From positions 151,632 through 215,631 of the forward strand of contig CAAGAD010000005.1 in NCBI GenBank assembly GCA_900767715.1: a DNA stretch of 64,000 nucleotides, in the 5' to 3' direction. Shown here piece by piece: positions 4,580 to 51,292 of this stretch (positions are counted from its first letter, which is position 1; every line of letters starts with the position of its first letter). The notes beneath the pieces were generated by a model. It saw only the letters and a list, made by a program, of their open reading frames with translations, was not told the DNA's origin and did not search any database. The DNA comes from Clostridia bacterium (GTDB taxonomy: Bacteria > Bacillota > Clostridia > Christensenellales > UBA1242). A program made the translations under genes and the position numbers.

Positions 4580-4608
4580 TTGTCTATTGGCGCACTTTGT
4601 GTTATAAT
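4580..4608 (+). promoter_or_regulatory. Sigma-A type promoter abutting the ung start codon (leaderless candidate)
   Basis: TTGTCT(4580-4585), 17 nt, TATAAT(4603-4608) with upstream TGt, 6 nt, ATG(4615). No purine-rich SD. Confidence 0.55.
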
Positions 4609-4614
4609 GCAAGT

Positions 4615-5286
4615 ATGAGTAACTATGTTTTGAACGAAGATTGGCAAAAAGTTTTGACGCCTGCATTCACGCAAGAATTCAAGCAAAAATTATTTGGTTT
4701 CGTGAATGAACAGTACGCCACGCACCGTTGTTTTCCCACCAAAGAAAACGTTTTTCACGCACTCAATCTCACGCCAGTTGACAAGGTAAAAGTGGTGATA
4801 ATTGGACAAGACCCATATCACACACCTTTGCAGGCTGACGGCTTGGCTTTTTCGTGCGCAGACGGCAAGGCACAACCATCTTTGCAAAACATTTTCAAAG
4901 AACTCTCCGCAGATTTAGGCGTGCCAGCACCAACCAAAACCACGCTTAATGGCTGGGCAGAGCAAGGCGTTTTGCTACTCAACAGCGTTTTGACAGTGCA
5001 AATGGGTGTGGCAGGTTCGCACGCGGGGCACGGCTGGGAAGAAGTAACAAAGACTATCATCAAATATTTGGCAAGCCTTGACCGCCCAATCGTATTCATT
5101 TTGTGGGGTGGTTATGCACGAAAGTATGCCAGTTTCATCGACAAAAACAAGCATTTAGTGATTGAATCGGCGCACCCAAGCCCACTTTCTGCATACAACG
5201 GTTTCTTTGGCAGTAAACCATTTAGCCGTTGCAATGATTATTTAGTGAAAAATGGTTTGTCACCGATAAAATGGGAGAATAATTAG
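4615..5286 (+). CDS. ung: Uracil-DNA glycosylase
   Basis: GQDPYH water-activating loop and HPSPLS motif. The N-terminus MSNYVLNEDWQKVL fits the family. The ORF-track start at 4567 would run through the terminator and promoter. Confidence 0.9.
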   Translation: MSNYVLNEDWQKVLTPAFTQEFKQKLFGFVNEQYATHRCFPTKENVFHALNLTPVDKVKVVIIGQDPYHTPLQADGLAFSCADGKAQPSLQNIFKELSADLGVPAPTKTTLNGWAEQGVLLLNSVLTVQMGVAGSHAGHGWEEVTKTIIKYLASLDRPIVFILWGGYARKYASFIDKNKHLVIESAHPSPLSAYNGFFGSKPFSRCNDYLVKNGLSPIKWENN

Positions 5287-5294
5287 GAGAAAAT

Positions 5295-5828
5295 ATGTTC
5301 GTAAAATACATTTTGCCCACACTCATCATCGTGGGCGCGATTGCAATCAGCGCAATATTCATAGTGTTGAGTAAACATACAGCCAAGCACGCTAACCACA
5401 CGTTCAGTTCGGCGGACGGTTTTATGGCGAAGCCAAGATTCATCAAATCGCAATACATTGAAATGTATCGTGCAATCAAGTCGGTTTTGCCGGAAAATAT
5501 CATCATTCAAACCAAAGTTACACTTGACACTTTCATTCTGTACAACGGATATGAAGTTGATAAGAAAAAGTTGTTGAGCAAATATGTGGATATGGTGATA
5601 TTTGCAGAGAGTGATTTTATGCCGATTTTGGCGCTAGACTTGTACAATTACGACACCACTTTGGAGTCAATGCAGGTGTTGAGAAAGGACATCGTCGGCT
5701 TGCTTAATTCGTGCGGAATACCTTGTATCTCTCTGCCTGTGGAAATGGCAAAAGACCCAACCAATTTGCAAAAAACATTGCTCGGCGCAATGAAAGAAAG
5801 CGACTTGAATAAAATAGGAGTGATTTAA
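5295..5828 (+). CDS. Membrane-anchored DUF2726-like protein (restriction-endonuclease-like fold), function unknown
   Basis: N-terminal TM segment (ILPTLIIVGAIAISAIFIVL). The core YVDMVIFAESDFMPILALDL ... RKDIVGLLNSCGIPCISL resembles the DUF2726 pattern (D..hhh...ELD ... aGIPhhR). SD AGGAG. Confidence 0.45.
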   Translation: MFVKYILPTLIIVGAIAISAIFIVLSKHTAKHANHTFSSADGFMAKPRFIKSQYIEMYRAIKSVLPENIIIQTKVTLDTFILYNGYEVDKKKLLSKYVDMVIFAESDFMPILALDLYNYDTTLESMQVLRKDIVGLLNSCGIPCISLPVEMAKDPTNLQKTLLGAMKESDLNKIGVI

Positions 5829-6904
5829 TGACAGACAAAACAAAATGTATAATTATCGCGGGCTACACCAAGCAGGACAACATTGAATATAACTTGCAAG
5901 AAATTACCGAACTTGCACTGTCTTGCGGGCTTGATGTTGTAGGCAAGATTTATCAAATCATCACTACGCCAGACATACGCACTTTTCTTGGCAAGGGCAA
6001 GGTGGAAGAATTGGCAAGCCTTGTTGAACAAACGGGCGCAGAATTGGTGGTTGTAGATAATCAACTGACCGGCAGTCAACTCAACAATATCGAAGAAGTG
6101 GTCAACGTTCGCACAATCGACCGCAATATGCTAATCCTAGATATTTTTGCGGGTCGCGCGCAGTCACAAGAAGGCAAATTGCAAGTCAAACTTGCCCAAC
6201 TAAAATATAGCCTGCCACGCCTTGCGTCCATTAGCGGTAGCCAAGGTCGATTCGGTTCGTCAGGCGTCGGCTCACGCGGACCAGGCGAGAGCAAACTCGA
6301 ACTTGACCGCAGACGCGTTAAATATGAGATTTCAGCCGTCGAAAAAGATTTGAACGACATCGCCAAGGCTCGCCAAGTACAATCTTTTAAACGAAAATCC
6401 ACAATGAAAAATGTGGCAATCGTCGGCTACACAAATGCCGGCAAAAGTACGCTTATCAACAACATTACTAAGGCAAACACTTACGCTGATGACCGTTTGT
6501 TTGCCACACTCGACGTGCTCTCGAAAAAAGTTTGGGACGACGGCGTAGAATATGTGCTCACTGACACAGTGGGCTTTGTCAGTCGCTTGCCACACGAACT
6601 AATGAAGGCGTTTAGCGCCACATTGGGCGAAGCCAAAGACGCGGACGTCGTGCTTTTAGTTTTCGACCTAACTGACGACCTTTGGTACAACAAATTGCAA
6701 GTGGTCGAGAGCGTTTTAAACGACCTCGGCGTAGATAAAAATCGCATTATTTACGTGGGCAACAAAATTGACAGCGCGCCAAGCGAATATGTGGTCGGCG
6801 CGAGAGAGATTTTGAAGGAGAATTTGATAATGATTTCTGCGCGCAAAAACTCTAATATTGACGAACTGAAAAAAGCGATAAAAATTCGTTTGCAAAACAC
6901 TTAA
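5828..6904 (+). CDS. hflX: GTPase HflX
   Basis: HflX N-terminal domain, then G1 GYTNAGKSTL and G3 DTVGF. Length 358 aa. Confidence 0.9.
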   Translation: MTDKTKCIIIAGYTKQDNIEYNLQEITELALSCGLDVVGKIYQIITTPDIRTFLGKGKVEELASLVEQTGAELVVVDNQLTGSQLNNIEEVVNVRTIDRNMLILDIFAGRAQSQEGKLQVKLAQLKYSLPRLASISGSQGRFGSSGVGSRGPGESKLELDRRRVKYEISAVEKDLNDIAKARQVQSFKRKSTMKNVAIVGYTNAGKSTLINNITKANTYADDRLFATLDVLSKKVWDDGVEYVLTDTVGFVSRLPHELMKAFSATLGEAKDADVVLLVFDLTDDLWYNKLQVVESVLNDLGVDKNRIIYVGNKIDSAPSEYVVGAREILKENLIMISARKNSNIDELKKAIKIRLQNT

Positions 6905-6929
6905 CATAATTTTGATAGAAAGATATAAT
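6901..6929 (+). promoter_or_regulatory. Candidate sigma-A promoter for mcsA-mcsB-clpC
   Basis: TTAACA(6901-6906), 17 nt, TATAAT(6924-6929). It overlaps the hflX stop. No CtsR operator (GGTCAAA repeat) is visible in 6905-7005. Confidence 0.35.
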
Positions 6930-7005
6930 CAAATATGGAAATACTATATTAACGATAGTTTCTCTGCAAGATGACAGAGTGAGTAAAGAGTGATTGAGAG
7001 GTTTT

Positions 7006-10907: not shown

Positions 10908-10936
10908 TTGACAACATAAAAAATTTAATGTAATAT
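10908..10936 (+). promoter_or_regulatory. Sigma-A promoter for the 95-aa ORF (and possibly gpsA)
   Basis: TTGACA(10908-10913), 17 nt, TAATAT(10931-10936). SD AAAGGAG lies ahead of ATG 10963. Confidence 0.55.
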
Positions 10937-10962
10937 GAAATTACAAATTAAAGGAGAACATT

Positions 10963-11250
10963 ATGAATAGTCCAGAAAAATTAATGGAAAAATTTACTAA
11001 ACTCGGTTGCGAAAACGTTGCTGTTGCTTACAAAGTAACTAGTGGCAAGAAGGAAGATATGATTGTCGCTACCGTATCTTGCATTTATCACGGCAAGAAT
11101 ATGTCTGTGAAGGGCGAAGGCAAGAACAATTACGTTGCAGCATCAACCGCTTTTGATGTTCTTAGAGGTAAAATCGCAGAAGTTAAAGGCAAAAACAGTC
11201 CAAAAGGCAGACGTAAACCAAACGTTCCAGAGGAAACTAACGAACTTTAA
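10963..11250 (+). CDS. Hypothetical small protein (95 aa) with basic C-terminal tail
   Basis: Strong SD and its own promoter. No family recognised. The tail is KGKNSPKGRRKPNVPEE. Confidence 0.55.
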   Translation: MNSPEKLMEKFTKLGCENVAVAYKVTSGKKEDMIVATVSCIYHGKNMSVKGEGKNNYVAASTAFDVLRGKIAEVKGKNSPKGRRKPNVPEETNEL

Positions 11251-12297: not shown

Positions 12298-12329
12298 AAA
12301 AAAATACACATTCGTATGTGTATTTTTTT
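12298..12329. terminator. Bidirectional terminator between gpsA and the convergent ABC-like gene
   Basis: Perfect 10-bp stem AAATACACAT-tcgt-ATGTGTATTT flanked by an A-run and a T-run. Confidence 0.8.
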
Positions 12330-12927
12330 ATTCCACATTCTTGATTGAGCCGTTTTGCATATAGATAGTTTTTGTTGTGGCGAAATCCACTTTTTGATTG
12401 CACGCAAGCAAGCATATTTGGCAGTTTGCGATAAGGTCGTCAAGGATTTTTTTGGATTGTTCGTTTGGCATATATTCCACTAACAATAAGTCCACTTTTC
12501 TAACGCAAAGACGCAATAGTGACAAAATGTATTTTTCTTCACTAGTCAAATTGCACGCCAATTTGTCTGCGAGAATATTTAAGCCGTATTTGTCTAACAC
12601 TTTAAGCGCGATTTTTTCGCTTTCGTTTTCGTCAAGGTGACGAATTATGTTGGGGTAGCAGAGATTGTACAACACGCTTTTGTTTTCAAACAGTGTCGCC
12701 ACTTTTGGTGCATACCCGATAAGGTGATGGTCTATTTCTGTTTTGATTTTGCCAGAATAGAATCTATCAATGCCAGCCACCGCACGCAAAACAAACGCGT
12801 TCCCAGACGTTTCGTCGCCGACAAGTTGAAGTTTGTCGCCACAATTTAGTTCCGCGCAAAAGTTATACAGCGAATAATACTGTTTGACGTATTTGATAGA
12901 TAAATTCTCAATCTTTAACACCTTCAC
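12328..12927 (-). CDS. ABC-ATPase-like protein with degenerate catalytic motifs
   Basis: ABC fold-like order (ENLSIKY..., Q-loop region, signature, Walker B). Walker A reads GDETSGNA with no Lys. The signature reads LTSEEK instead of LSGGQ. Walker B reads LLLVEY. The GTG start is uncertain. No permease partner is adjacent. Confidence 0.5.
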   Translation of the reverse strand: MKVLKIENLSIKYVKQYYSLYNFCAELNCGDKLQLVGDETSGNAFVLRAVAGIDRFYSGKIKTEIDHHLIGYAPKVATLFENKSVLYNLCYPNIIRHLDENESEKIALKVLDKYGLNILADKLACNLTSEEKYILSLLRLCVRKVDLLLVEYMPNEQSKKILDDLIANCQICLLACNQKVDFATTKTIYMQNGSIKNVE

Positions 12928-12957
12928 ATTTTAACATATATTACTGTTTAGCGCAAA

Positions 12958-14131: not shown

Positions 14132-15400
14132 TTAATCTACCATTTCGAATTGTTGGTCACCGAACAATACCGTGTCGCCCTCAACAGCGCCTTTTTCCTT
14201 TAACATATCAAAGATACCTTTTTCTTTGATTTTTGACATAAAGTAGCCAAGCGATGCCGTGTCAGTGAACACGATTCCGCGTTGCAATTCGTCAATGTAT
14301 CCACCGCTCACGCGATAGGTATGCGGTGCGACCATTTCAATGTCGATGCTGGTCACATCTCTTACATCGATTCGCTCAATCTCTGGCTTGATTGGCTCTG
14401 GCACTAGCAAATTTTTTAACTCGTTCCAAGTGGTTTTCAAGAGTTCGTCCACGCCTTGATTAATTATTGCACAGATTGGAACAATAGGGAACTTTGTCTT
14501 TGTTTTGGTCTTGAAAGATTTTACGCGCTCGTCCAAATCGTCAACCATATCAATTTTTGTAAGAGCGATAATCTGTGGCAGTGTTGCTAGGCGCGCATTA
14601 AACTTTTTCAGTTCATCGTTAACGACTTTATAGTCAGCCACTGGGTCATTGCCGTTCACTCCGCTGATATCCACAACGTGAATGAGTAGGCGAGTGCGCT
14701 CAATGTGTGACAAGAAGTCGTGACCAAGTCCAACGCCTTCGCTCGCGCCTTCAATAAGCCCCGGAATGTCCGCCACAACAAAACTATTGTCGTAATATTT
14801 CGCAATGCCGATATTTGGTGTGAGTGTGGTAAACTCGTAATTCGCTATTTTAGGTTTTGCACTAGTGATGATTGATAGTATTGTGCTTTTGCCAACGTTT
14901 GGTTTACCGATGAGTGCGACATCTGCAATCATTTTGAGTTCAAGTTGCACTTGATAAGGCTTGCATACTTCGCCTAGTTGTGAGAATTGTGGTGCTTGAC
15001 GTGTAGGCGTTTTGAAAAACGCGTTACCGCGTCCACCGCGACCGCCTTGCAAGATTACCGCGCGTTCGCCGTCGGCATACATATCTGCCACAACCTTACC
15101 GGTATCGACATCGCGAATAACTGTGCCACAAGGTACTTCAATGACGATGTCTTGACCGTCCTTGCCGTTGCGAAGTCCGCCATCACCATTCTCACCATTT
15201 TCTGCCACAAATTTACGCTTGTATTGAAAATCTATGAGAGTGTTCTTGTTTCGACTAGCCAGGAAAATAACACTGCCACCTTTACCGCCATCGCCACCCG
15301 ATGGACCGCCATTTGCGACATATTTTTCTCTGCGCCAACGTACGACGCCGTCACCGCCGTTACCCGCTTTAATTGTAATTTTAACTTTATCTATGCTCAT
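14132..15400 (-). CDS. obg: GTPase Obg/CgtA
   Basis: Glycine-rich Obg fold (GGDGGKGG, GGRGGRGN), G1 GKPNVGKST, and a C-terminal OCT-like domain. Confidence 0.95.
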   Translation of the reverse strand: MSIDKVKITIKAGNGGDGVVRWRREKYVANGGPSGGDGGKGGSVIFLASRNKNTLIDFQYKRKFVAENGENGDGGLRNGKDGQDIVIEVPCGTVIRDVDTGKVVADMYADGERAVILQGGRGGRGNAFFKTPTRQAPQFSQLGEVCKPYQVQLELKMIADVALIGKPNVGKSTILSIITSAKPKIANYEFTTLTPNIGIAKYYDNSFVVADIPGLIEGASEGVGLGHDFLSHIERTRLLIHVVDISGVNGNDPVADYKVVNDELKKFNARLATLPQIIALTKIDMVDDLDERVKSFKTKTKTKFPIVPICAIINQGVDELLKTTWNELKNLLVPEPIKPEIERIDVRDVTSIDIEMVAPHTYRVSGGYIDELQRGIVFTDTASLGYFMSKIKEKGIFDMLKEKGAVEGDTVLFGDQQFEMVD

Positions 15401-16025
15401 ACTTATCCTTATAATATTTACAATAATTTTGCATCTTACACTCTTCGCATTTTGGTTTCTTGCTAATGCAATGATATCTGCCGAAGAGAATCAAACGCAA
15501 GTGAAGTTTGTCCAAACAATCTTTGTCAAATACTTCATAAATTTTTCGCTCCACTTCCAAAGGTGAATCTTTTTCATCGCTAATGCCCAATCGGTCGCAT
15601 ACGCGATGAACATGAGTGTCAACCGCCACAACAGGTAGCCCGAAGCACTCGTTTAAAACTACGTTTGCAGTCTTTCGTCCAACCCCGCGCAAAGTTTGTA
15701 AAACGTCGCGGTCAGTAGGCATTTCGCCATTGTACTTTTCCACGATTTCGCGCGAGCATTCCTTAATGGCTTTTGCTTTGGAATTGTAGAACCCACACGA
15801 GTGAATAATATCTTTCAAAACTTGCTCATCAAGGGCAGTCATTTTGTCCGGAGTGGGTGCTATGGCAAAAAGTTTTGGCGTCACCATATTGACGCGCTTG
15901 TCCGTGCATTGCGCAGACAAAATTGTGGCAATTAAAAGTTGGTAGGGTGTTTCATAATTTAGTTCACATCTAGCCACGGGAAACATCTCTTCCAAATACG
16001 TTAACAATTCTTTTTGTTTTTCCAT
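15387..16025 (-). CDS. nth: Endonuclease III
   Basis: LLIATILSAQCTD, HhH-GPD LRGVGRKTANVV, and a C-terminal Cys cluster CISKKPKCEECKMQNYC. It overlaps the obg start by 14 nt. The track start at 16043 is GTG inside the promoter. Confidence 0.9.
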   Translation of the reverse strand: MEKQKELLTYLEEMFPVARCELNYETPYQLLIATILSAQCTDKRVNMVTPKLFAIAPTPDKMTALDEQVLKDIIHSCGFYNSKAKAIKECSREIVEKYNGEMPTDRDVLQTLRGVGRKTANVVLNECFGLPVVAVDTHVHRVCDRLGISDEKDSPLEVERKIYEVFDKDCLDKLHLRLILFGRYHCISKKPKCEECKMQNYCKYYKDKYEHR

Positions 16026-16060
16026 AAGTTTATTATAACACACAAGAGAATCATTTTCAA
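16026..16060 (-). promoter_or_regulatory. Sigma-A promoter abutting the nth start codon (leaderless candidate)
   Basis: Minus strand: TTGAAA(16060-16055), 17 nt, TATAAT(16037-16032), 6 nt, ATG(16025). No SD. Confidence 0.5.
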
Positions 16061-18693: not shown

Positions 18694-18722
18694 TTGACAA
18701 TACGGCTATAATGTTTTAGAAT
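18694..18722 (+). promoter_or_regulatory. Sigma-A promoter abutting the pdp start codon (leaderless candidate)
   Basis: TTGACA(18694-18699), 17 nt, TAGAAT(18717-18722), 6 nt, ATG(18729). No SD. Confidence 0.55.
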
Positions 18723-18728
18723 AATAAT

Positions 18729-20024
18729 ATGAACATTTTATCAATCATCAACAAAAAGCGATATGGCAAGGTTTTGACCACCGAAGAAATAGAATTTGTA
18801 ATCAAGGGCTACACCAAAGGAAAAATCCCTAACTATCAAATGAGTTCACTCCTAATGGCGATTTGCACCAAAGGAATGAATTATGAAGAGACTCTCGCGA
18901 TGACTTTGGCAATGAAGAATAGTGGCAAGGTTTATATTTTTGACAAATCACGTAATTTCATTCTCGACAAACACAGCACGGGCGGAGTGGGTGACTCGAC
19001 AACCTTTATTGTGATGAGCACGCTCGCCAGCCTTGGCTACAAAATGGTGAAGATGAGCGGACGCGGGCTTGGACACACGGGTGGCACGCTAGACAAACTT
19101 GAAGTCTTCCCAAAGGTTAAGCACAATTACTCAATCGACCAAGTAGAAGATTTCTTGGACAAAAATAATGCCGTCATCATTGGTGCACAGGCGGTTGCCC
19201 CAGCGGACAAGAAAATTTATCTTTTGCGCGATGTGACATCAACAGTTGAGAGCATACCTTTAATCTGCGCCAGCATTCTGTCTAAAAAGTTGTCTTGCGG
19301 TGCTCACGGCATTGTGTTCGACATCACATGTGGCGATGGCGCATTTATGCACAACCTAAAAGACGCGCAAACCTTGGCTCACCTTATGCGTAAGATTATG
19401 CAACACGAGAAAGTACGCGCGTCATTCGTCATTACAGATATGAATTCACCACTTAGCCGTGGCATTGGCAGAGAATATGAGATTGCCGATGTCGTTCGCG
19501 TGTTGAATGGTGAGAGATGTGCGCTTCGTGAAGTCTCACTAAAACTGATTGTTGAAGCAATGCGTCTGCAAAAGCCGGAACTCAACGAAAAGTACGCCTA
19601 CATTCAAGCGAGCCAGGCGATAGATAACGGACAAGCCAAGCAAAAGTTTGTTGACATTCTACGTGCCCAAGGCGCTGTGGTTGACAACATTGATGACTAT
19701 CAAACTGTGCCAAAGACTAAATACGCAACGAAAATCTATGCGGACAAGTCGGGCAGAGTAAGGCGCGTGTCTGCACGAGCGCTAGGTGATGCCGTGCGCA
19801 TTTTGGGTGGCGGACGCCTTGTCGAAACTGACACAATCACGCCTTACGTGGGTATGGAAATCAATTACCGTGTTGGCGACAAAGTGAAGAAGGGCGATTG
19901 CCTAGCCGTTGTGCATTATGAAGATAAAAAGAAATTTAAACAAGTCGAGGCTCAAATCAAAAACGCATTCCAGATTGGCTGTTTCGCGTTCAAGCCTAAA
20001 CTTATAATTCAGGAAATAAAATGA
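18729..20024 (+). CDS. pdp: Pyrimidine-nucleoside (thymidine) phosphorylase
   Basis: IINKKRYGKVLTTEEIEFVIKGY N-terminus, HSTGGVGD phosphate-binding motif, 431 aa. Confidence 0.92.
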   Translation: MNILSIINKKRYGKVLTTEEIEFVIKGYTKGKIPNYQMSSLLMAICTKGMNYEETLAMTLAMKNSGKVYIFDKSRNFILDKHSTGGVGDSTTFIVMSTLASLGYKMVKMSGRGLGHTGGTLDKLEVFPKVKHNYSIDQVEDFLDKNNAVIIGAQAVAPADKKIYLLRDVTSTVESIPLICASILSKKLSCGAHGIVFDITCGDGAFMHNLKDAQTLAHLMRKIMQHEKVRASFVITDMNSPLSRGIGREYEIADVVRVLNGERCALREVSLKLIVEAMRLQKPELNEKYAYIQASQAIDNGQAKQKFVDILRAQGAVVDNIDDYQTVPKTKYATKIYADKSGRVRRVSARALGDAVRILGGGRLVETDTITPYVGMEINYRVGDKVKKGDCLAVVHYEDKKKFKQVEAQIKNAFQIGCFAFKPKLIIQEIK

Positions 20025-23014: not shown

Positions 23015-23831
23015 GCTTTTCTCCCAAAAATCTTTTTAGTTCATAACAAAAATTTTGTCGGTTTTCCAAATATGCGAAATGACCATAGTTGGTGATTATA
23101 CATCTTGATTTTTCGATGTGTTTATGAAAATATGAACACATATACATAGGTGTTTCTTTGTCACGCTTACCCCAATAAATTAGAGTCGGGCATGAGATGT
23201 CTTTTACTAAAATTTTTAGGTCAAGATTAACTACATTTTTAAACGTCGTTTTGTCAATATTTTTTAGAGCCAAATAATCTGTCGAACCCAACACATTTTC
23301 AAAATGCAGGTCGCGATTGTCCAGCCACTTTTTTGTGCTGTTAAGACCATTCAATTTTTTAGTTCTAGGTTTAATGCCCGCGCCCGAACAGATGACCAAC
23401 TTTTTGACGAGTACGTCACGATTTAATAGCAGTGCCACTCGACACCCAAAACTATGACAGACGACAATCGGCTCGCAAATATTTAACAATTTCAAAATAT
23501 TTACGACAATATTTTTGTAGTCGAGCATTGAGAGTGCTTGGTGTGACGCGTAACTTTTGTTTGGCGGAAAACTAATTTTCAGTGTTGAAAAGTTTTTAAC
23601 GAACGGGTCGCACTCGTCGAACGAGTTTTTGTTTCCGCCCCAGCCGTGCAAGAACACTACGCAATCCTTCCCGCGTTTTTGATAATCGTAATCAATGATA
23701 AAACTTTTATAAATGTATTTCACATATTGATATATGCGTATGCGCGCGTTTTCGTCCAAAGTGGCATTGTGCTCACCGCTACAGACTTTGTCGAGTTGAC
23801 GAATGCAAAAATTTTTCGTCACGCACAACAA
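23004..23831 (-). CDS. Alpha/beta hydrolase
   Basis: VVFLHGWGGNKNSF oxyanion region, nucleophile elbow CHSFGC, and C-terminal GHFAYLE. It overlaps the murF start by 11 nt. The start is uncertain: TTG in the track, with no internal ATG before the conserved core. Confidence 0.7.
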   Translation of the reverse strand: MLCVTKNFCIRQLDKVCSGEHNATLDENARIRIYQYVKYIYKSFIIDYDYQKRGKDCVVFLHGWGGNKNSFDECDPFVKNFSTLKISFPPNKSYASHQALSMLDYKNIVVNILKLLNICEPIVVCHSFGCRVALLLNRDVLVKKLVICSGAGIKPRTKKLNGLNSTKKWLDNRDLHFENVLGSTDYLALKNIDKTTFKNVVNLDLKILVKDISCPTLIYWGKRDKETPMYMCSYFHKHIEKSRCIITNYGHFAYLENRQNFCYELKRFLGEKHDN

Positions 23832-23886
23832 TCAATTTGTAAAGCACTCTTGCCCTAAACTTACCACTCGCACACCCGCCAAAACT

Positions 23887-23916
23887 GTGTCAGCCTACGC
23901 AAAGCGAACATATAAC
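23887..23916 (+). promoter_or_regulatory. Candidate promoter abutting the ddl start codon (leaderless candidate)
   Basis: TATAAC(23911-23916), 6 nt, ATG(23923). The -35 is weak (TGTCAG at 17 nt or GTGTCA at 18 nt). No SD. Confidence 0.4.
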
Positions 23917-23922
23917 CTTAAT

Positions 23923-24975
23923 ATGAAAAAAATAGGAATCATATTCGGTGGCGAATCGGTCGAACACGATGTGTCGATTGTCACCGCCTTGCAATGCTAT
24001 CAAATGATAAAATCGAACTTTGACATCAAACTTATCTACATAACGCACGATAACGAGTTCTATTTCGTGCCCTCAAATGTTCGTCCCAAAGACTTTGTAC
24101 GCTTGCCAAAGCACGCCAAACGCTTAAAAAACCTGCAATTCGGCGTTGACACAATCATCAATTGCTGTCACGGTGGGATAGGAGAGAACGGGCAACTCTC
24201 GGCAATGCTGTTGACGCTTGGCATTCGCTACACCAACGCGGATTGCCTATCAAGTATGCTGGCAATGGACAAATCGCTCACCAAACTCGCGCTCAAAGGC
24301 ACGAAAGTAAAGACTTTGCCCGCGAAAACCTATTATTCCTTGCCCGACAAAGCCGAACTCGACAAAACTGCCTATCCAGTCATCGTCAAACCGCGAAGCC
24401 TTGGCAGTAGCATAGGCGTGGTAAGGTGCGACACCGCCGACGACCTAATGCGTGCCATTCAAGCCGACCTAATGTATGACCGCGCTTGCATTGTGGAGAA
24501 GTGCATCGACCCGCTCATTGAGTACAACTGCGCCGTCTATCAGCACGGTGAAGATTTGATTGTCAGCGAAATCGAACAACCAGTCAAACACGACACGACA
24601 TTGAGTTTTGCCGACAAATATCTCATCTCCGCGCAAAAAGGAATGAAAGGTTCGTCACGCATTCTGCCTGCCGAGATTGATGACGCACTCCGCGACAAAA
24701 TCCACAACTGGACGCTCACGGCATACAAAGTTCTTGACCTAAAAGGCGTGGTAAGGGTGGATTATCTCTTCGACCCCACGACAAAATCTCTCTATCTCAA
24801 CGAAATCAACACCATACCGGGCTCGCTCGCGTTTTATCTTTTTGAACCGTTGGGAATCAGTTATGTGGAACTAATAAAAGACCTTATCGACGACTGCCAA
24901 AATTCACACATAGCAGACAACAAAATTACCAGATTTGACTCGCAAATCCTTGATATTGCTTTACATAAAAATTGA
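23923..24975 (+). CDS. ddl: D-alanine--D-alanine ligase
   Basis: MKKIGIIFGGESVEHDVS N-terminus, ATP-grasp core, and the LNEINTIPG motif. The upstream ORF-track extension (23803) overlaps the divergent gene. Confidence 0.92.
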   Translation: MKKIGIIFGGESVEHDVSIVTALQCYQMIKSNFDIKLIYITHDNEFYFVPSNVRPKDFVRLPKHAKRLKNLQFGVDTIINCCHGGIGENGQLSAMLLTLGIRYTNADCLSSMLAMDKSLTKLALKGTKVKTLPAKTYYSLPDKAELDKTAYPVIVKPRSLGSSIGVVRCDTADDLMRAIQADLMYDRACIVEKCIDPLIEYNCAVYQHGEDLIVSEIEQPVKHDTTLSFADKYLISAQKGMKGSSRILPAEIDDALRDKIHNWTLTAYKVLDLKGVVRVDYLFDPTTKSLYLNEINTIPGSLAFYLFEPLGISYVELIKDLIDDCQNSHIADNKITRFDSQILDIALHKN

Positions 24976-31356: not shown

Positions 31357-32628
31357 TTAAATTTTACGTTCGCCGGTGACGCCTTCTTTAAATCCGCAAG
31401 GACTAGAACACTTGTAGTCAGGGAAGGTGCAACGTGAGCCGTGAGTGTATTTTTCCAACATTTCGGCTTGTGGGTGACCTTTACGTTTGAGTTCGGCAAC
31501 GTAACGATTGAGCGTGTCAGTAGTTTGGTTGTCAATTTCCAGTTGAGCAGCAGCGCATTTACGCTCTTTCATCTTCAAAATGAATTTGTCCAAACTGCCA
31601 TATTCGTTGATGTTCACGAGCAAACCTTGTGGGAATACGCTTGCTTGGCTTTCGCAGTCATTCTTCCATTCGCGAGTGAGTTCGTCGCTCATACGAATAA
31701 TTTTTGGCACATAGAACTCTGGTGTGTCGAGCAAGGTCATATCGTAACTAATAGTGCGGTGGCGCTGTGCTTGCGCTAGTTGGGCAAGTGAGCCCTTGTA
31801 ACTGGTACAATACACATCACCGAAATAGGTTTCTGGTGCGATAGAGCGCTTGATGAGTGACAAGTGTGCGTTCTTGGCGTTGACACCTTCGGCAAGGTCC
31901 TTGTCATAATACACGCGATTTACGTTGCCGTCTTTGATGTAGTCGAACAAAATGCGTCTGTGCACTGGGTCGTCGTCTTGACTGAGTTTTTGCTCCCAAA
32001 CTTCCGTCTTCAAGCCGTTTTGAATGCTGGTGACGAAATCGCTCATTGCTGGCACGAGTGCCTTGTAAAAGTCGTTGGACGGATTGTCGATTTCACGTTG
32101 CATCATAGCGCACAAATAATTGAGTTGGCGAAGGGACACAGTGTAAACCATTGTGGTAGGGGTGAACACCGAAATTAGATAACGCGCATTCTCTTGCGCC
32201 AGTTTCTCAATCTTTTTCTCTGTGAAAATGTTTGGATATTTGGCTTGATATTCGTCGCGGATAAGATTTTTGTATGTGTCGAGCCATTTGTCGAACAACT
32301 TTTGTTCGCCTTCCTTCAACACCATTTTGGTGTAGCGAGCCGATTTTTCGCTGGTGTTGTAGAATTGCTCATTGTTGAGCACCATTGCCAAGCCCTTTGG
32401 AATGTTTTCCAGTGACAAGTTGATAAATGCGTGGTCAAACACACTGTGGTGACCGCTGGCTTTTGTTCCGTTGGCACGGCGCATAGTTTTTTCTTTCGGC
32501 TCACACATCAGCGCACCAAAAGTGTCTGGCATATAGCACACGCCCGCAGCGTGTCCGCATAGTTTGGTCAAATCTTCCATTGACGCCGCCATATTAGGCA
32601 TAGTCGTCCCGATAATAGATATTTTCAT
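31357..32628 (-). CDS. Double-length ThyX-like (flavin-dependent thymidylate synthase family) protein
   Basis: SGHHSVFDH (family GHxSxxEH). The first half has ...NEQFYNTSEKSARY (S-x-R-Y kept, RHR lost). The second half has QAQRHRTISYDM (RHR kept, SxRY lost). 423 aa, about twice a canonical ThyX. The C-terminal tail is Cys-rich (CTFPDYKCSSPCG). Confidence 0.6.
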   Translation of the reverse strand: MKISIIGTTMPNMAASMEDLTKLCGHAAGVCYMPDTFGALMCEPKEKTMRRANGTKASGHHSVFDHAFINLSLENIPKGLAMVLNNEQFYNTSEKSARYTKMVLKEGEQKLFDKWLDTYKNLIRDEYQAKYPNIFTEKKIEKLAQENARYLISVFTPTTMVYTVSLRQLNYLCAMMQREIDNPSNDFYKALVPAMSDFVTSIQNGLKTEVWEQKLSQDDDPVHRRILFDYIKDGNVNRVYYDKDLAEGVNAKNAHLSLIKRSIAPETYFGDVYCTSYKGSLAQLAQAQRHRTISYDMTLLDTPEFYVPKIIRMSDELTREWKNDCESQASVFPQGLLVNINEYGSLDKFILKMKERKCAAAQLEIDNQTTDTLNRYVAELKRKGHPQAEMLEKYTHGSRCTFPDYKCSSPCGFKEGVTGERKI

Positions 32629-32727
32629 TTTCCCCTCCCAAATTTTGCATTGAATATATCACGCTCGAACAGGTTTGTCAACTTAATTGATGTCATATTT
32701 GCGCTAAAAAATTAATAAATAATTAGT

Positions 32728-32955
32728 ATGGAAACAAGATTGGACAAGGCATATTTGGGTAAGGTTTACACGATAGTGAATTTGCAGTTAAACGACCCCA
32801 AAATGACCACAAGACTCAAAGAATTAGGCTTCATTTCGGGCAACGAGATAGTTGTCAAAGCCATTTCTCCGCATCGTAAAACGATAATTGTGGCATTGCT
32901 CGGCAGTATGTTCGCGTTGAAGACGAACATAGCAAAAGAGGTGGTGATAAAATGA
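32728..32955 (+). CDS. feoA: Ferrous iron transport protein A
   Basis: 75-aa SH3-like FeoA pattern (RLKELGFISGNEIVV...). It overlaps the feoB start. Confidence 0.85.
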   Translation: METRLDKAYLGKVYTIVNLQLNDPKMTTRLKELGFISGNEIVVKAISPHRKTIIVALLGSMFALKTNIAKEVVIK

Positions 32956-34820: not shown

Positions 34821-34849
34821 TTGCCGAGAACAAATCTTTGTGATATATT
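34821..34849 (+). promoter_or_regulatory. Sigma-A promoter abutting the der start codon (leaderless candidate)
   Basis: TTGCCG(34821-34826), 17 nt, TATATT(34844-34849) with TGa, 6 nt, ATG(34856). No SD. Confidence 0.5.
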
Positions 34850-34855
34850 TATGCT

Positions 34856-36175
34856 ATGAGAAAACCTGTTGTAGCCATTGTAGGCACTCCAAATGTGGGC
34901 AAGAGCACATTTTTCAATAAAATCGCTGGCAGACGAATCAGCATAGTAGATGACCAACCGGGTGTAACGCGTGACCGTATTTACGCCGACGCCGATTGGA
35001 ATGGCTATGCTTTTTCCATTGTCGATACGGGCGGTTTGGATTTTAGCAAAGATGACGAAATGTATCACAATATTTTGAACCAAGCACAGATTGCCATAGA
35101 TTTGGCGGACGTGATTGTATTTTTTGTGGACGGTAAAAAGGGTTTGACCCACGCAGATATGGAAGTGGCGAATATGCTCCGCAAGTGCAAAGCACCAAAG
35201 ATTGTGGCTGTCAACAAACTTGACAACAACGAGATTGAGAAGACATACGAGTTTTACGAACTCCAACTCGGCGACCCAATGCCATTGTCCGCTTCGCACG
35301 GCAAGGGAATAGGCGACTTGCTTGACGCCATTACGCACCATTTAGAGCAGATTTCGCCCGAAGAGTTCGCCGACACGCTCAAAATTGCCATTGTGGGCAA
35401 GCCAAACGCCGGCAAGAGTAGTTTGACGAATAGACTTATAGGCGAAGATAGAATGGTTGTCAGCAATGTGGCTGGCACGACGCGTGACGCCATTGACATT
35501 CCATTTAAGTATAACGGCAAGAATTACACGCTTATTGACACCGCAGGCTTGCGTAAGAAGGGTAAAATAGCCCCAGACAGCATTGAGCGTTACAGCGCGC
35601 TTAGGTCGATTGACGCGGTGGAGCGTTGTGACATTGCGCTTATGGTGATTGACGCCACAGAAGGTATCACCGAGCAAGACTCCAAGGTTGCAGGTCTTAT
35701 TCACGACGAAGGCAAACCAAGTGTCATTGTGGTGAACAAGTGGGACAAGGTCGATAAGACCAAGATGACCACCGAGAAGTTTAAGAAACTCATTGAAACC
35801 GAACTGCCGTTTATGAAATATTATGTGCCAGTCTTCATCTCTTGCGAGAGTGGTCAACGCATTGGCAAGGTTATGGAAATGGCAGAAATGGTTTATGCCA
35901 ACGCCAGTCGTGAGATTACGATGGGCGTATTCAACTCAATTTTGCAGAATGCGACGGCGGTCAACGAGCCACCTATACACAATGGTCGCAAACTCAAAGT
36001 GCTTTATGGCAGACAATCGGGCAAAAATCCGCCAACCTTTACAATTTTCTGCAACCGCGCAGAATTAATGGATTTTGCCTATTCAAGATATTTGGAAAAT
36101 AGCATTAGAAACGCCTTTGATTTCAAGGGCACTCCTATCAAACTAATCTTCAAAAACAAAGGAGAAAAAGATTAA
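34856..36175 (+). CDS. der: Ribosome-associated GTPase Der (EngA)
   Basis: Tandem G domains (GTPNVGKSTFFN; GKPNAGKSSLTN) and a KH-like C-terminus. Confidence 0.95.
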   Translation: MRKPVVAIVGTPNVGKSTFFNKIAGRRISIVDDQPGVTRDRIYADADWNGYAFSIVDTGGLDFSKDDEMYHNILNQAQIAIDLADVIVFFVDGKKGLTHADMEVANMLRKCKAPKIVAVNKLDNNEIEKTYEFYELQLGDPMPLSASHGKGIGDLLDAITHHLEQISPEEFADTLKIAIVGKPNAGKSSLTNRLIGEDRMVVSNVAGTTRDAIDIPFKYNGKNYTLIDTAGLRKKGKIAPDSIERYSALRSIDAVERCDIALMVIDATEGITEQDSKVAGLIHDEGKPSVIVVNKWDKVDKTKMTTEKFKKLIETELPFMKYYVPVFISCESGQRIGKVMEMAEMVYANASREITMGVFNSILQNATAVNEPPIHNGRKLKVLYGRQSGKNPPTFTIFCNRAELMDFAYSRYLENSIRNAFDFKGTPIKLIFKNKGEKD

Positions 36176-41363: not shown

Positions 41364-41392
41364 TTGATTTACAACTATAATTTTGGTATAAT
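41364..41392 (+). promoter_or_regulatory. Sigma-A promoter abutting the rsmD start codon (leaderless candidate)
   Basis: TTGATT(41364-41369), 17 nt, TATAAT(41387-41392) with TGg, 6 nt, ATG(41399). No SD. Confidence 0.55.
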
Positions 41393-41398
41393 GCAATT

Positions 41399-41938
41399 AT
41401 GAGAATTGTGGCAGGAAAATTTAGGGGCACGCACCTAGCAGACTTTGACCTTGACACCACCAAGCCGACACTCGACCGAGTGCGCGTCAGCATTGGTAAT
41501 ATTTTGCAATTCAATTTTGACGGGGCAGTAGCGGTTGACCTATTTTCCGGCAGTGGTTGGTTCGGTCTGGAAGCACTCTCACGTGGTGCGTCCAAAGTCT
41601 ATTGCGTAGATAGCAACAAACAAGCCATTAAAATTATTCGTGCCAATTTTACTCGCTTAAAGCAAGACGAGAGCCAAATTGTCAACAGCGATTATATGGA
41701 CTTTTTGCGCACTGCCAAAAATAAGGGCGATAAGTTTGACATTGTTTTCCTTGACCCGCCATACGCCACAGACTTTGCACAGAGGGCCGTTGACTATATC
41801 ATCGAGCACGATATGATGAACGCGGGCGGAGTCATTATGCGTGAGAGCGACTCGACGAGCACACCGCTCTTTGCCACGGATAAAGAAATTTCTAGTCGTA
41901 CTTATGGCCGACCTAGACTAGAATGGATAAGGTTTTGA
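41399..41938 (+). CDS. rsmD: 16S rRNA (guanine966-N2)-methyltransferase RsmD
   Basis: MRIVAGKFRGTHL N-terminus, SAM motif DLFSGSG, and VFLDPPY. Confidence 0.9.
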   Translation: MRIVAGKFRGTHLADFDLDTTKPTLDRVRVSIGNILQFNFDGAVAVDLFSGSGWFGLEALSRGASKVYCVDSNKQAIKIIRANFTRLKQDESQIVNSDYMDFLRTAKNKGDKFDIVFLDPPYATDFAQRAVDYIIEHDMMNAGGVIMRESDSTSTPLFATDKEISSRTYGRPRLEWIRF

Positions 41939-45615: not shown

Positions 45616-45661
45616 GGTATAAAGATTTATTCATCTCATATAATACAGTATGGAGATAAAT

Positions 45662-45802
45662 ATGAAGAAAAACGAAAGTATGACAGCAAGTGAAATCTGC
45701 AAAAGACTATTTTACGGAACAGGCGAAATAAACTATTATATGTTGTCCAAAGCGATTGACGACAGCAACAAAAGGACACACACGGACGATTTGATTAGAT
45801 AA
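45662..45802 (+). CDS. yqzL: YqzL-like small protein (46 aa), below the ORF-track cutoff
   Basis: MKKNESMTASEICKRLFYGTGEINYYMLSKAIDD... carries the F..TG.I..Y.L.K core of YqzL. It has the same era-yqzL-recO position as in B. subtilis, SD GGAG, and its TAA overlaps the recO ATG (TAATG). Confidence 0.55.
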   Translation: MKKNESMTASEICKRLFYGTGEINYYMLSKAIDDSNKRTHTDDLIR

Positions 45803-46470
45803 TGGAACAGAATACAAAAGCAATCATTTTAAATACGAGAGAGTATAAGGAAGCGGACAAACTTGCCACGATTTTTAGTCGTGACTTAGGCAAGATATGT
45901 GTGCGCTTTGTTGGTGTGGCGAAACCCAAAGCCAAACTCAAAGCCAATGCTCAACCCTTTTCCTATTCCGACCTTGAACTTATGCGCACGGGCGACTTTT
46001 TCAAGGTGAAGACTGCCAAACTGAATAATAGTTTTGCCGAGATTGTCACCGATTTTGACGCGATGAAAGTGGGTTATGCCATTTTGGAAACATTGGACAA
46101 GGTTCTGCCTAACGCAGAGCCCGAGCCAGAGATTTTTGACCTTGTGCTAGACACCTTGACCACGCTCAACGACAGCGCAAATAATAAGCAAAAAATCTTG
46201 ATTGACTTTTGGCTCAAATTCACCTTTTTACTAGGCAATCCTATCATCAGCGCAGACGCTGACGGCGGGTATAAATATGTCTATCTCGACGGCGTCGATG
46301 GGGTAATCACCCCCATACACACGCACGACAGTGTGGCGGTCGATGGCGCGGTCTGGCAGACGATTTGTGGCACGGGTGAAAAGTATGAAATGGCGCTCCG
46401 CCTTTTGTACAAAGCCTTGCGTATAAAATTTGACGTGGTTTTGAGTTCAATATCTATGTTTTTTGGTTAA
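45802..46470 (+). CDS. recO: DNA repair protein RecO
   Basis: N-terminal OB-fold pattern KAIILNTREYKEADKLATIFSRDLGK. Located directly after era/yqzL. Confidence 0.85.
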   Translation: MEQNTKAIILNTREYKEADKLATIFSRDLGKICVRFVGVAKPKAKLKANAQPFSYSDLELMRTGDFFKVKTAKLNNSFAEIVTDFDAMKVGYAILETLDKVLPNAEPEPEIFDLVLDTLTTLNDSANNKQKILIDFWLKFTFLLGNPIISADADGGYKYVYLDGVDGVITPIHTHDSVAVDGAVWQTICGTGEKYEMALRLLYKALRIKFDVVLSSISMFFG

Positions 46471-49239: not shown

Positions 49240-49268
49240 TTGACAACTAGCCAGTGTTGTGCTATTAT
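49240..49268 (+). promoter_or_regulatory. Sigma-A promoter for orphan gene P1
   Basis: TTGACA(49240-49245), 17 nt, TATTAT(49263-49268). Confidence 0.6.
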
Positions 49269-49294
49269 TCGATTCACAAAAGGGTAGGGAAATA

Positions 49295-50107
49295 ATGGCT
49301 AGTTTAATTGAAAAATATTTAAAAGAAGTAGCAGAAGAACAACACGCACTTGATTACGCAAAAGATGAGTTGATGGGCGCGCAAACTATGATAGAGCATA
49401 TGTTGCCAAAAGTAATGAACGCGTCAATTAATAGTGGCAAAAGTCCGCAAATCAGGAAGGCAGAGCGTGAAGACATCTTCCGCCAGATTCTAGAAGACAG
49501 ATATGATGTAGATGGTTCTAATAGACGCATTAATGAACGCACAGCGCGATTGGACGAACTATGCGACAAGTTTCACGGCGAAATGGAAGTTAGATTTGGA
49601 GATTTCGCAGAAGAAATGGAAAAAGACCTGCAAATACCAAAAGGTGTTATGCGCATAGAAATTCTCGACGGAGATGAGGGTTTGGCAGAAATATCGTCAC
49701 AAAATGTTCCTGTAAAGAGTTTGAAAATTCCGCACGAGCAACTTAAATCAAATATTTGTAATACATGGAAAAAGGTGATATTTCTGTTCTCATTGGACCA
49801 CATTTATCCGGTTATGACCATAGGAGTAGAGCCATCTAAGATTAAGTTTATGGACGAAAAATCACTTTATGAACATACGAATGTAACATTCGGTAAGCTG
49901 ATTATGGACCCGAATAATGAGCGATTGGGAGAAATTCCATACACGATTGAGATAGATGATGTGCGCCAGATTGTTTTGCCATATAAAATAGGCGATTTTC
50001 TAAATATTCCAGCCTATTTGCAAAACGCATTCATTCGCTCAGTCGCTAGATATAAAAAGACCGGAAAAGGTCAAGACAATCTCATTGATAACACAGAACG
50101 AGAATAA
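49295..50107 (+). CDS. Hypothetical protein P1 (270 aa), paralog of the next gene
   Basis: SD AGGGTAGGGA. The N-terminus MASLIEKYL... and the C-terminal segment DDVRQIVLPYKIGDFLNIPAYLQNAFIRSV parallel P2. No family recognised. Confidence 0.6.
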   Translation: MASLIEKYLKEVAEEQHALDYAKDELMGAQTMIEHMLPKVMNASINSGKSPQIRKAEREDIFRQILEDRYDVDGSNRRINERTARLDELCDKFHGEMEVRFGDFAEEMEKDLQIPKGVMRIEILDGDEGLAEISSQNVPVKSLKIPHEQLKSNICNTWKKVIFLFSLDHIYPVMTIGVEPSKIKFMDEKSLYEHTNVTFGKLIMDPNNERLGEIPYTIEIDDVRQIVLPYKIGDFLNIPAYLQNAFIRSVARYKKTGKGQDNLIDNTERE

Positions 50108-50194: not shown

Positions 50195-50217
50195 CAAACT
50201 AATTAAGGATATGGGGT

Positions 50218-50856
50218 ATGGGAAGTTTAATTGAACAAATGTTGGCTGACATTAACGCTGTTGGCGACCAAAAAGCAGAAGCAGGTAAAAAGTTGCTTAT
50301 GGCTAGACGTCACGTTGATATCTTGACACGTGAAGCCGAGCGTGAATACAATGAGAAATTTGGCGTTGAAGAAAAACGCACATTGTTTAAAGAATTAATG
50401 GAAAAAGAAGCCGAAATGGCAACAAAAGTTAATAGTAAAATTGCTCTGCCTTTGGGCGCTCTTATCGACGAATATGTTGCTCAAAACAATTTGGAAAAAA
50501 ATGACGTAAATTGCAAATGCGGTGTTAGAATTAGTGCAATAAGATTTGGCAAACCAGTCATAATTTACAACTTCAAGGTTAAAGCCAAAAACAGTTATGA
50601 CGTGTTCGACTTCACACGTGACGAAAATCAAGTAAGATTCGCAGACGGCAATGGCATTCATAGTCACATCAACTACCGTCCATATAGTGAGTATAACGGA
50701 GATGAAGCATTATATGTAGTAAAAGACCCTAGAAACATCATCTTCAAACTGAACTACAAAGAACTTGATTTGCTCCGTCAAAACAAACCAAAAATATTCA
50801 AGGCAATGGTTGCCGTGCTTGACCGTCAACTAGCCGAAACCAGCGAACGTAAATAA
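50218..50856 (+). CDS. Hypothetical protein P2 (212 aa), paralog of the previous gene
   Basis: SD AAGGATATGGGG. The N-terminus MGSLIEQML... is followed by a coiled-coil-like region. The C-terminal segment KDPRNIIFKLNYKELDLLRQNKPKIFKAMVAVL parallels P1. Confidence 0.6.
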   Translation: MGSLIEQMLADINAVGDQKAEAGKKLLMARRHVDILTREAEREYNEKFGVEEKRTLFKELMEKEAEMATKVNSKIALPLGALIDEYVAQNNLEKNDVNCKCGVRISAIRFGKPVIIYNFKVKAKNSYDVFDFTRDENQVRFADGNGIHSHINYRPYSEYNGDEALYVVKDPRNIIFKLNYKELDLLRQNKPKIFKAMVAVLDRQLAETSERK

Positions 50857-50860
50857 GGAA

Positions 50861-50889
50861 AATACACCAGAAATCTGGTGTATTTTTTT
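50861..50889 (+). terminator. Terminator after P2
   Basis: AATACACCAG-aaat-CTGGTGTATT perfect 10-bp stem plus a T-run. Confidence 0.8.
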
Positions 50890-50930
50890 GTTGTGGAATA
50901 ACGATAGTTGTGCTTTGCGCACAAAAATAT

Positions 50931-50959
50931 TTGCGCTATGCAGAGATTTGTAGTATAAT
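50931..50959 (+). promoter_or_regulatory. Sigma-A promoter abutting the RNHCP-gene start codon (leaderless candidate)
   Basis: TTGCGC(50931-50936), 17 nt, TATAAT(50954-50959), 6 nt, ATG(50966). No SD. Confidence 0.5.
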
Positions 50960-50965
50960 GTATTT

Positions 50966-51292
50966 ATGAAAATTGCGAAAAACGATAACGGTTTCGTGTG
51001 CGAATGGTGTGGCAAGACGGTCAGCCCGCTCGGCTACACATCGCGCGACCATTGCCCATATTGCCTTGTGAGCAAGCACGTTGACATTTTGCCGGGCGAC
51101 AGAAGCAACGACTGTGGCGGGCATTTAATCCCTTATGACGTGGAAATCAGCGCCAAAAAGGGCTACATAATACACTACAAGTGCGATAAATGCAAGCAAA
51201 CGCACAACAACAAGTCGGCGACTGATGACAAAATGAGCGTTATTTTATCCTTGATGAATAAGTCATACAACCCAAAAGACTTTAAGAAATAG
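50966..51292 (+). CDS. RNHCP domain-containing zinc-ribbon protein
   Basis: FVCEWCGKTV...TSRDHCPYCLVSKHVD...GDRSNDCGG matches the RNHCP-domain pattern. There is a second CDKC pair. Confidence 0.75.
   Translation: MKIAKNDNGFVCEWCGKTVSPLGYTSRDHCPYCLVSKHVDILPGDRSNDCGGHLIPYDVEISAKKGYIIHYKCDKCKQTHNNKSATDDKMSVILSLMNKSYNPKDFKK

Follow-up and report, generated by a model that had tools for sequence, protein, structure and literature searches.

Here we describe a set of genes whose promoters are placed directly on the start codon. They lie in a 64,000-nt stretch of DNA from an uncultured Clostridia bacterium of the human gut (Christensenellales, UBA1242; assembly GCA_900767715.1, contig CAAGAD010000005.1, positions 151,632 to 215,631), referred to below, at its full length, as the window. 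At seven genes a promoter of the housekeeping σA type ends its -10 box exactly 6 nt before the start codon, and no Shine-Dalgarno (SD) sequence intervenes. This spacing is enriched at true starts, the genes stand first in their transcription units, and the layout is conserved in relatives. We consider it likely that these first genes are expressed from leaderless mRNAs, the transcription start and the mode of translation being deduced from promoter geometry.

In promoters used by σ70 or σA, the -10 box spans positions -12 to -7 and is followed by a 6-nt discriminator. The +1 position is a purine, the seventh base after the -10 box. At the genes described here, that canonical +1 would fall on the A or G of the start codon. 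We scanned the DNA upstream of 59 curated starts with a σ70/σA position weight matrix (PWM) that combines the -35 box, a spacer of 16-18 nt, a bonus for an extended -10 (TGn) and the -10 box. The matrix was applied at every distance from 0 to 60 nt, and a score of at least 8 was taken as a strong promoter. Distances are written as N6 (the -10 box ends exactly 6 nt before the start codon) and so on. Seven of the 59 starts, or ~12% of genes, have a strong promoter at exactly N6. None of the 59 has one at N1-5, N7-9 or N11-17, and a single gene, starting at 54079, has one at N10. A second class of promoters sits at N18-27, with scattered sites out to 44 nt; these belong to genes with clear SD boxes. 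The number expected at one fixed spacing is 0.09, using the site density of the whole window, or 0.27, using that of upstream regions. The corresponding binomial probabilities for seven cases in 59 are 7.5e-12 and 1e-8. An earlier sequence-only reading of this DNA had itself proposed comparing N6 at true starts with N6 at other ATG codons. Only 3 of 2007 such decoys have a promoter at N6 (0.15%), against 7 of 59 true starts, and the peak at true starts is sharp and confined to one position.

The loci are listed in Table 1. All seven have TTGnnn at 17 nt from the -10 box, and five (ung, nth, der, rsmD and the gene for an ABC-type ATPase) also have the TGn extension. PWM scores at N6 range from 9.7 to 14.6 (nth 14.6, ung 14.1, pdp 14.1, rsmD 13.9, der 12.9, ABC-type ATPase 10.6, RNHCP-domain gene 9.7). 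The sequence-only reading had reported seven layouts of the form -35/17/-10/6/ATG, namely ddl and all of these genes apart from the ABC-type ATPase, and each of its layouts matches the sequence base for base. The ABC-type ATPase gene is an eighth candidate, absent from that list, and may give rise to a GUG-initiated leaderless mRNA. An independent promoter-tool scan of the first 20 kb placed nth (11/12, TG; the best match of the scan), pdp (11/12) and ung (10/12, TG) among its best sites. This tool reported 67 promoter-like sites, compared with 44.5 in shuffled sequences, so a single match is weak evidence. The lack of an SD was also claimed before and is confirmed by duplex energies: pairing with the anti-SD is -2.9 kcal/mol or weaker at 7 of the 7 genes in question. 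Across all candidates the energies run from -2.9 to +0.6 kcal/mol, whereas 43 of 60 scored genes reach -5.5 kcal/mol or stronger.

The seven strong genes start with ATG in six cases and GTG in one, and their N-termini are kept in orthologues. NCBIfam equivalog profiles align from residues 1-4 of the ung, nth, pdp, ddl and der products. The UDG profile begins at the ung ATG (4615), and position 1 of the pdp profile is residue 1 of the protein. The Pfam RNHCP domain occupies residues 8-93 of the RNHCP gene product, and the rsmD open reading frame (ORF) leaves no room for an upstream extension. The starts had previously been pinned by family-typical N-termini; the profile alignments (ung, nth, pdp, ddl and der) and the closed rsmD ORF agree with them. 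Public gene calls (loci L089/L090) are overlong for two genes, giving ung 239 aa (window 4567-5286) rather than the family-consistent 223 aa, and ddl 390 aa (window 23803-24975) rather than 350 aa. Likely, these calls reflect gene callers that seek an SD-supported or the longest start. Mis-called starts were considered as an explanation of the layout and rejected on the profile alignments. For der, pdp, rsmD and the RNHCP gene, profiles that begin at residues 1-8 leave little or no room for a later start. For ung and nth, no convincing SD was found among the downstream in-frame starts listed, the strongest being that of a GTG 16 codons into nth (-5.9 kcal/mol).

The layout is confined to genes that open a transcription unit. 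A gene was counted as first in its unit if the upstream gap was at least 30 nt or the upstream gene was divergent. Strong N6 promoters are found at 7 of 31 first genes (23%) and at 0 of 29 internal genes (one-sided hypergeometric P ~0.007). Including ddl, feoA and the 54079 gene would raise the share of first genes to as much as 32% in this 64-kb sample. The downstream partners of the candidates are SD-led: obg-yhbY after nth (the nth coding sequence overlaps the obg start), tsaE-tsaD after pdp, plsY after der and coaD after rsmD. Direct folding identified hairpins next to two of the promoters (Table 1). A terminator-tool scan was too noisy to be of use and missed the AT-rich hairpin at ung. 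Because the latter hairpin reaches the -35 box, a promoter specific to ung has to lie within the last ~35 nt. Hence, with terminators 5' of both the ung and RNHCP promoters, no space is left at these loci for another promoter or a leader. A scan of the whole window at Rfam gathering thresholds gave no matches, and so no leader RNA, riboswitch or T-box 5' of the candidates; nothing therefore argues for long structured leaders.

Table 1. Positions in the window of the candidate promoters with their start codons, and of adjoining hairpins. Numbers between boxes are spacer lengths in nt; lower case marks the variable base of a TGn extension.
Feature	Region (strand)	Coding sequence	Layout	Remark
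ung	4580..4617 (+)	4615-5286	TTGTCT(4580-4585)-17-TGtTATAAT(4603-4608)-GCAAGT-ATG(4615)	
ABC-type ATPase	12919..12956 (-)	12328-12921	TTGCGC-17-TGtTAAAAT-GTGAAG-GTG(12921)	
nth	16023..16060 (-)	15387-16025	TTGAAA-17-TGtTATAAT-AAACTT-ATG(16025)	
pdp	18694..18731 (+)		TTGACA-17-TAGAAT-AATAAT-ATG(18729)	leads pdp-tsaE-tsaD
der	34821..34858 (+)		TTGCCG-17-TGaTATATT-TATGCT-ATG(34856)	
rsmD	41364..41401 (+)		TTGATT-17-TGgTATAAT-GCAATT-ATG(41399)	leads rsmD-coaD
RNHCP-domain gene	50931..50968 (+)		TTGCGC-17-TATAAT-GTATTT-ATG(50966)	
ddl	23911..23925 (+)		TGTCAG-17-TATAAC-CTTAAT-ATG(23923)	weak candidate; start region
Membrane-protein gene	54041..54081 (+)		TTGACA-16-TGtTATAAT-AAAACTAATT-ATG(54079)	
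Terminator-like hairpin	4558..4582 (+)		AACACAGCAATGTGTTTTTT	adjoins ung -35 box; upstream segment folds at ~-18 kcal/mol
Strong terminator hairpin	50861-50895			upstream of RNHCP promoter; ends ~35 nt before its -35 box

The window has a GC content of 43%, and identical or 99%-identical proteins are encoded on long metagenome contigs such as ERZ28570572 scaffold_2 (521 kb). The species or its close relatives are present in the samples, Hadza ones among them, from which ERZ28570572 and ERZ4561533 derive. For comparison we used related loci at several distances. Loci L001, L091 and L092 represent a sister species with ~84% DNA identity to the window. L002 and L103 (metagenome-assembled genome JBKSMV01) are ~72% identical at the DNA level, and L101 and L106 (sample ERZ1462737) lie at a similar distance judged by protein identity (ValS 73%, Der 87%). 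The nearest named relatives belong to Candidatus Onthoplasma, placed in the Christensenellales in NCBI taxonomy, with Obg 61% identical. Gene order around obg is conserved in the Onthoplasma-like loci L093-L100. A metagenome search with Obg returned only distant relatives (at most 55% identity); apart from nth in L009 and L010, these were of no use for judging conservation of the candidates, and they were reused as negative controls.

Across species and genera, the promoter boxes and their spacing are conserved while the intervening bases turn over. The der promoter also stands at N6 in L001, L002 and L106, where the Der proteins are 87-99% identical. The -10 box varies between TATATT and TATACT (diverged in L106) and the spacer has diverged in L002 and L106. 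The discriminator reads TATGCT, TAAGCT, TAACAC or AAAAAC, having diverged in L001, L002 and L106. L091 and L092 retain the layout of both ung and nth and differ from the window only in the spacer and discriminator, at ung in the spacer alone. The rsmD promoter is at N6 in L001; in L002 it is TGtTATACT at N8, again with no SD. Conservation extends furthest for nth. In L093 and L098-L100, where the protein is 51-53% identical, nth has TTGACT-17-TGnTAAACT or TAGTAT-6-ATG. In the distant L009 and L010 (Obg 51-55% identical), a TGn-extended -10 box lies at exactly N6 and no SD is present. In L016, GGGGGAG is found upstream of nth instead of the N6 layout. Leaderless nth may, on this distribution, be older than the clade studied. 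The ABC-type ATPase gene has TTGnnn-17-TGnTAnnnT-6-start in L091 (with GTG) and in L093, L098, L099 and L100 (with ATG, at 28-35% protein identity). Judged from this conservation, the nth and ABC-type ATPase layouts are old cases. Further genes with N6 or N7 promoters occur in L101 (a 329-aa protein and an RNase_T-family gene, at 11840 and 16808) and in L105 (U32 peptidase and a 178-aa protein, at 5136 and 15987, and lepA at N7).

The same automated pipeline was run on all sets of loci; it calls ORFs greedily, takes SD-less ATG candidates and requires a promoter score of at least 8. The frequency of N6 cases per ORF is 0.123 in the window, 0.082 in six loci from other species of the genus and 0.084 in six Onthoplasma-like loci. 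In control loci it is 0.004 at a GC content below 0.40 (502 ORFs), 0.017 at 0.40-0.50 (352 ORFs) and 0 at 0.50 or above (99 ORFs). Spacings other than N6 occur at ~0.002-0.005 per ORF in all sets. The N6 layout is thus 5-30 times rarer in unrelated control loci than in the clade. The low rate in controls of matched or higher GC marks the signal as lineage-specific, and not a generic property of AT-rich intergenic DNA. That roughly one gene in nine carries the layout as a lineage trait, as put forward from the sequence alone, fits these counts (7 of 59 curated genes; 0.08-0.12 per ORF in the clade versus 0-0.017 in controls).

Some orthologues have a leader. The der gene is SD-led in L104, where 31 nt with GAGGAG follow the -10 box, and in L105, where TTGAAA-17-TGaTATACT is followed by 20 nt with AGGTG. 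It is also SD-led in L003-L006, four Oscillospiraceae-type outgroups. The membrane-protein gene at 54079 has a very strong promoter (PWM 15.3 at N10) and no SD. The sequence-only reading had noted the missing SD and a -10-like hexamer 10 nt away, and the predicted leader of ~3-4 nt would make it nearly leaderless. The same TTGACA...TATAAT promoter stands 18-19 nt from the start codon in L101 (6700-6763) and L103 (2760-2825), with GGGTG or GGTG in between. The distance after the -10 box is therefore 10 nt without an SD in the window and 18-19 nt with one in the relatives. The gene syntenic with pdp in Onthoplasma-like genomes is SD-led too, with a 25-nt leader in L093 and a GGGGA box in L098-L100; being only ~30% identical to pdp of the window, it is possibly not an orthologue. 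For der and the 54079 gene, these comparisons suggest recent loss of the leader in the lineage of the window.

SD-led first genes have strong promoters with only 18-27 nt between the -10 box and the ATG, for example at 10908-10965, 32628-32680(-), 49240-49297 and 62940-62993. Their predicted 5' untranslated regions (UTRs) are consequently ~12-21 nt, which barely leaves room for an SD. This compact arrangement of promoter and SD may ease the loss of a leader. Together, the orthologue pairs and the very short SD leaders suggest that leaders were lost by small deletions.

We propose the following mechanism. First genes of transcription units would carry housekeeping σA-type promoters (TTGnnn, 17 nt, often TGn, then TAnnnT) set so that the transcript has neither a 5' UTR nor an SD. 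The ribosome and initiator tRNA would recognise the 5'-terminal AUG directly, by the leaderless pathway, and downstream genes of the same operons would use ordinary SD sites. That protein would be made from such transcripts is suggested indirectly, these being conserved housekeeping genes for which no other initiation signal is available. The arrangement would be a trait of this clade of gut Clostridia, affecting ~12% of genes and ~23% of operon-first genes in the window. It would include both old cases (nth and the ABC-type ATPase) and recent ones (der and the 54079 gene), the latter made by deleting a very short SD leader while keeping the promoter. A broader reading, which we favour by a little, is that leaderless initiation spread independently in the clade until it served about a quarter of its operons. 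The der and 54079 genes would then catch the loss of SD leaders of 12-20 nt in progress, and a leaderless-rich regime would have arisen a second time, in low-GC Gram-positives.

Several observations weigh against leaderless expression of these genes or limit its extent. The transcription starts are predictions from promoter geometry. At der, where the feoB stop codon lies immediately 5' of the -35 box, the gap after feoB is 35 nt and holds no terminator, so that read-through with an internal, SD-less der start is possible. The 12921 start of the ABC-type ATPase gene is a GTG that was picked partly on the promoter, and another GTG is found in the same frame 6 nt further upstream. Over their first 40 nt, the leaderless candidates show no less structure than other genes do (P = 0.25), a comparison that is uninformative at n=7. 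Because the sample consists of 64 kb and largely syntenic loci, the relatives do not supply independent counts, and any genome-wide fraction is an extrapolation. Lastly, ddl has a PWM score of only 2.7, neither a -35 box nor an SD, and a -10-like hexamer that ends in C and so lacks the invariant final T. In four Onthoplasma-like relatives ddl also has no SD, and an A/T-rich TATAxx lies 3-6 nt upstream; in L106 there is a possible SD-led ATG three codons upstream. Hence, of the seven genes first proposed to be leaderless, the reading stands for six (ung, nth, pdp, der, rsmD and the RNHCP gene), and ddl is weakly supported and downgraded to a weak case.

It is unlikely, in our view, that the promoters are real and that transcription nevertheless begins a few bases off the ATG, or that longer transcripts from upstream dominate, as read-through from feoB into der would provide. 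Either event would yield SD-less leaders that are very short or long. The feoB-der junction is compatible with this, and spacing can drift, as seen for rsmD (N8 in L002), the 54079 gene (N10) and lepA (N7 in L105). However, all 7 strong cases of the window, and nearly all orthologues, have a spacing of exactly 6, which is unexpected if the exact start were unimportant. The terminators immediately 5' of the ung and RNHCP promoters also oppose upstream transcripts.

Another possibility, which we hold to be distinctly improbable, is that transcription starts at promoters further upstream which escaped recognition, giving leadered mRNAs whose translation needs no SD, and that the TATAAT-like hexamers act as A/U-rich, unstructured translation enhancers. 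Some SD-independent initiation on leadered mRNA must indeed exist, since feoA (32728), recO (45802), ddl (23923) and a gene at 18646 are SD-less and have no good N6 promoter. The A/T-rich TATAxx is, moreover, all that the ddl relatives have in common. An enhancer, however, needs no TTGnnn at 17 nt, no TGn and no single fixed distance, and all three are conserved across genera; nor do the terminators just 5' of the ung and RNHCP promoters leave such leaders an origin. Finally, we give almost no credence to an artefact of chance or annotation (coincidental hexamers in AT-rich DNA, or true starts further downstream behind a hidden SD): the surplus of tool-predicted sites over shuffles and the differing public calls for ung and ddl speak for it, but a binomial P of at most 1e-8, rates of 0.15% at decoys and 0.4-1.7% in control loci, family profiles that align from the protein N-termini, and a layout conserved across genera speak against it. 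Leaderless expression is the reading we retain, for the six genes named above and the ABC-type ATPase gene.

Other starts fit the layout less well. The sequence-only reading had named gpsA (11264) as a second short-leader case beside the 54079 gene. We rejected it: there is no -35 box, the PWM score is 4.6, and the "TAATAT" hexamer takes in the stop codon of the gene before it, the gap between the two genes being 13 nt. In the sister species, gpsA is not at that position, which also counts against a leaderless gpsA. It is more likely an internal, translationally coupled operon gene. The feoA (32629-32730) and recO (45616-45804) start regions contain homology-pinned ATG codons that lack an SD and have no good promoter at N5-7. 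Orthologues of feoA in L105 and L106 have TAAAAT at N5, and recO is preceded by an unexplained gap of 186 nt. A 412-nt ORF-free gap (58159-58573) precedes the gene at 58571. There, a strong promoter-like TTGACA-17-TAAACT ends right at the ATG (N0), accompanied by a weak AAAGGA SD. At 25016-25429, two ORFs of 132 aa overlap nearly completely on opposite strands. The plus-strand ORF, which has an SD and lies behind an N27 promoter, matches cytidine/deoxycytidylate deaminase in Pfam; its minus-strand counterpart is the source of a false N6 match at 25318.

Two further features of the window were noted. ARAGORN identified a tRNA-Leu(GAG) at 31021-31103 that the Rfam scan did not report. The 87 nt from 31021 to 31107, which cover this tRNA, are 100% identical in L002, whereas the flanking DNA is ~72% identical. 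Positions 5-3613, running off the left end of the window, encode the C-terminal end of a giant protein; its orthologue in L091 is called at 3241 aa and has a faint Flg_new_2 match. This is probably a large protein of the surface or adhesin type.

Bacillota are commonly regarded as depending strictly on an SD, and leaderless genes are abundant in Actinobacteria and Deinococcus. If the reading given here is confirmed, frequent leaderless translation reaches into the Clostridia, to a lineage common in the human gut. Metagenome pipelines that assume an SD will then misplace starts in this clade. The pairs of leadered and leaderless orthologues (der, the 54079 gene and pdp) would be a natural experiment on leader loss, and a natural series for studying how the switch from leadered to leaderless is tolerated. 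A literature search on leaderless mRNAs in Christensenell- taxa found no relevant paper.

In the GeneMarkS-2 study, the signature of leaderless transcription is a promoter box 6-8 nt from the start of first genes (PMC6028130). Its group C comprises genomes with 25-50% of operons leaderless, and 36 of 1064 Firmicutes were placed in the leaderless group (PMC6028130). In C. difficile, 6-15 leaderless mRNAs were found among ~1600-2000 mapped transcription start sites (PMC7438776; bioRxiv 10.1101/2020.08.10.244764). In C. phytofermentans they are "much rarer", and candidates keep a ribosome binding site (RBS) and another transcription start site (PMC5171806). For 56 of 209 Firmicutes genomes, mostly Lactobacillales and Mycoplasma, Zheng et al. 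(2011) put the predicted share of leaderless genes at 2.4-16.6%, and they noted a TG extended -10 in low-GC genomes (PMC3160421). The view from the sequence alone, that leaderless mRNAs are uncommon in Bacillota, agrees with the 36 of 1064 Firmicutes and with C. difficile; it needs tempering for Lactobacillales and Mycoplasma, where they have been predicted (PMC3160421).

The arrangement in the window resembles that of group C, which includes Mycobacterium tuberculosis and Deinococcus deserti: a Pribnow box 6-8 nt from the start of first genes, no SD, and SD-led internal genes. Its frequency, 23% of first genes (up to 32% with the weak cases, in a 64-kb sample), compares with 25-50% of operons in that group. 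Mycobacteria accept GUG as well as AUG as leaderless starts, and the window has one GTG case. Unlike group C, the present genes come from Bacillota (Clostridia), at a low GC content, and are predicted from sequence. They also have a full TTGnnn -35 box and frequent TGn, in contrast to the bare TAnnnT of high-GC groups.

There is also a likeness to the predictions for other Firmicutes (Lactococcus/Streptococcus, Oenococcus/Leuconostoc and Mycoplasma), which share low GC, TAtAAT, a TG extended -10 and a fixed short distance (PMC3160421). The ~12% of genes found here lies within the range given there. Those clades are Bacilli and Mollicutes, and no Clostridia are named in the text passages available; the -35 box, suggested there to be dispensable in Lactococcus, is well conserved in the window (PMC3160421). 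Cultured Clostridia (C. difficile, with spoVAE and a few others, and C. phytofermentans) belong to the same class and have the same type of σA promoter. The frequency here is ~10x that in C. difficile, and the candidates, which are predicted, have no SD, whereas those of C. phytofermentans keep their RBS. The leaderless mRNAs of lambda cI and Tn1721 tetR are translated via 70S ribosomes, or 30S-IF2-fMet-tRNA complexes, at the 5'-terminal AUG. The mechanism proposed here is the same, with a 5'-terminal AUG as the only initiation signal. However, cI and tetR are isolated phage and transposon genes in an SD-dominated host, whereas the genes of the window are chromosomal housekeeping genes (for DNA repair, ribosome biogenesis and nucleoside salvage) conserved across genera. 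The mechanism proposed is a known one in a lineage new to it, and the frequency ranks high among the predictions made so far for the phylum.

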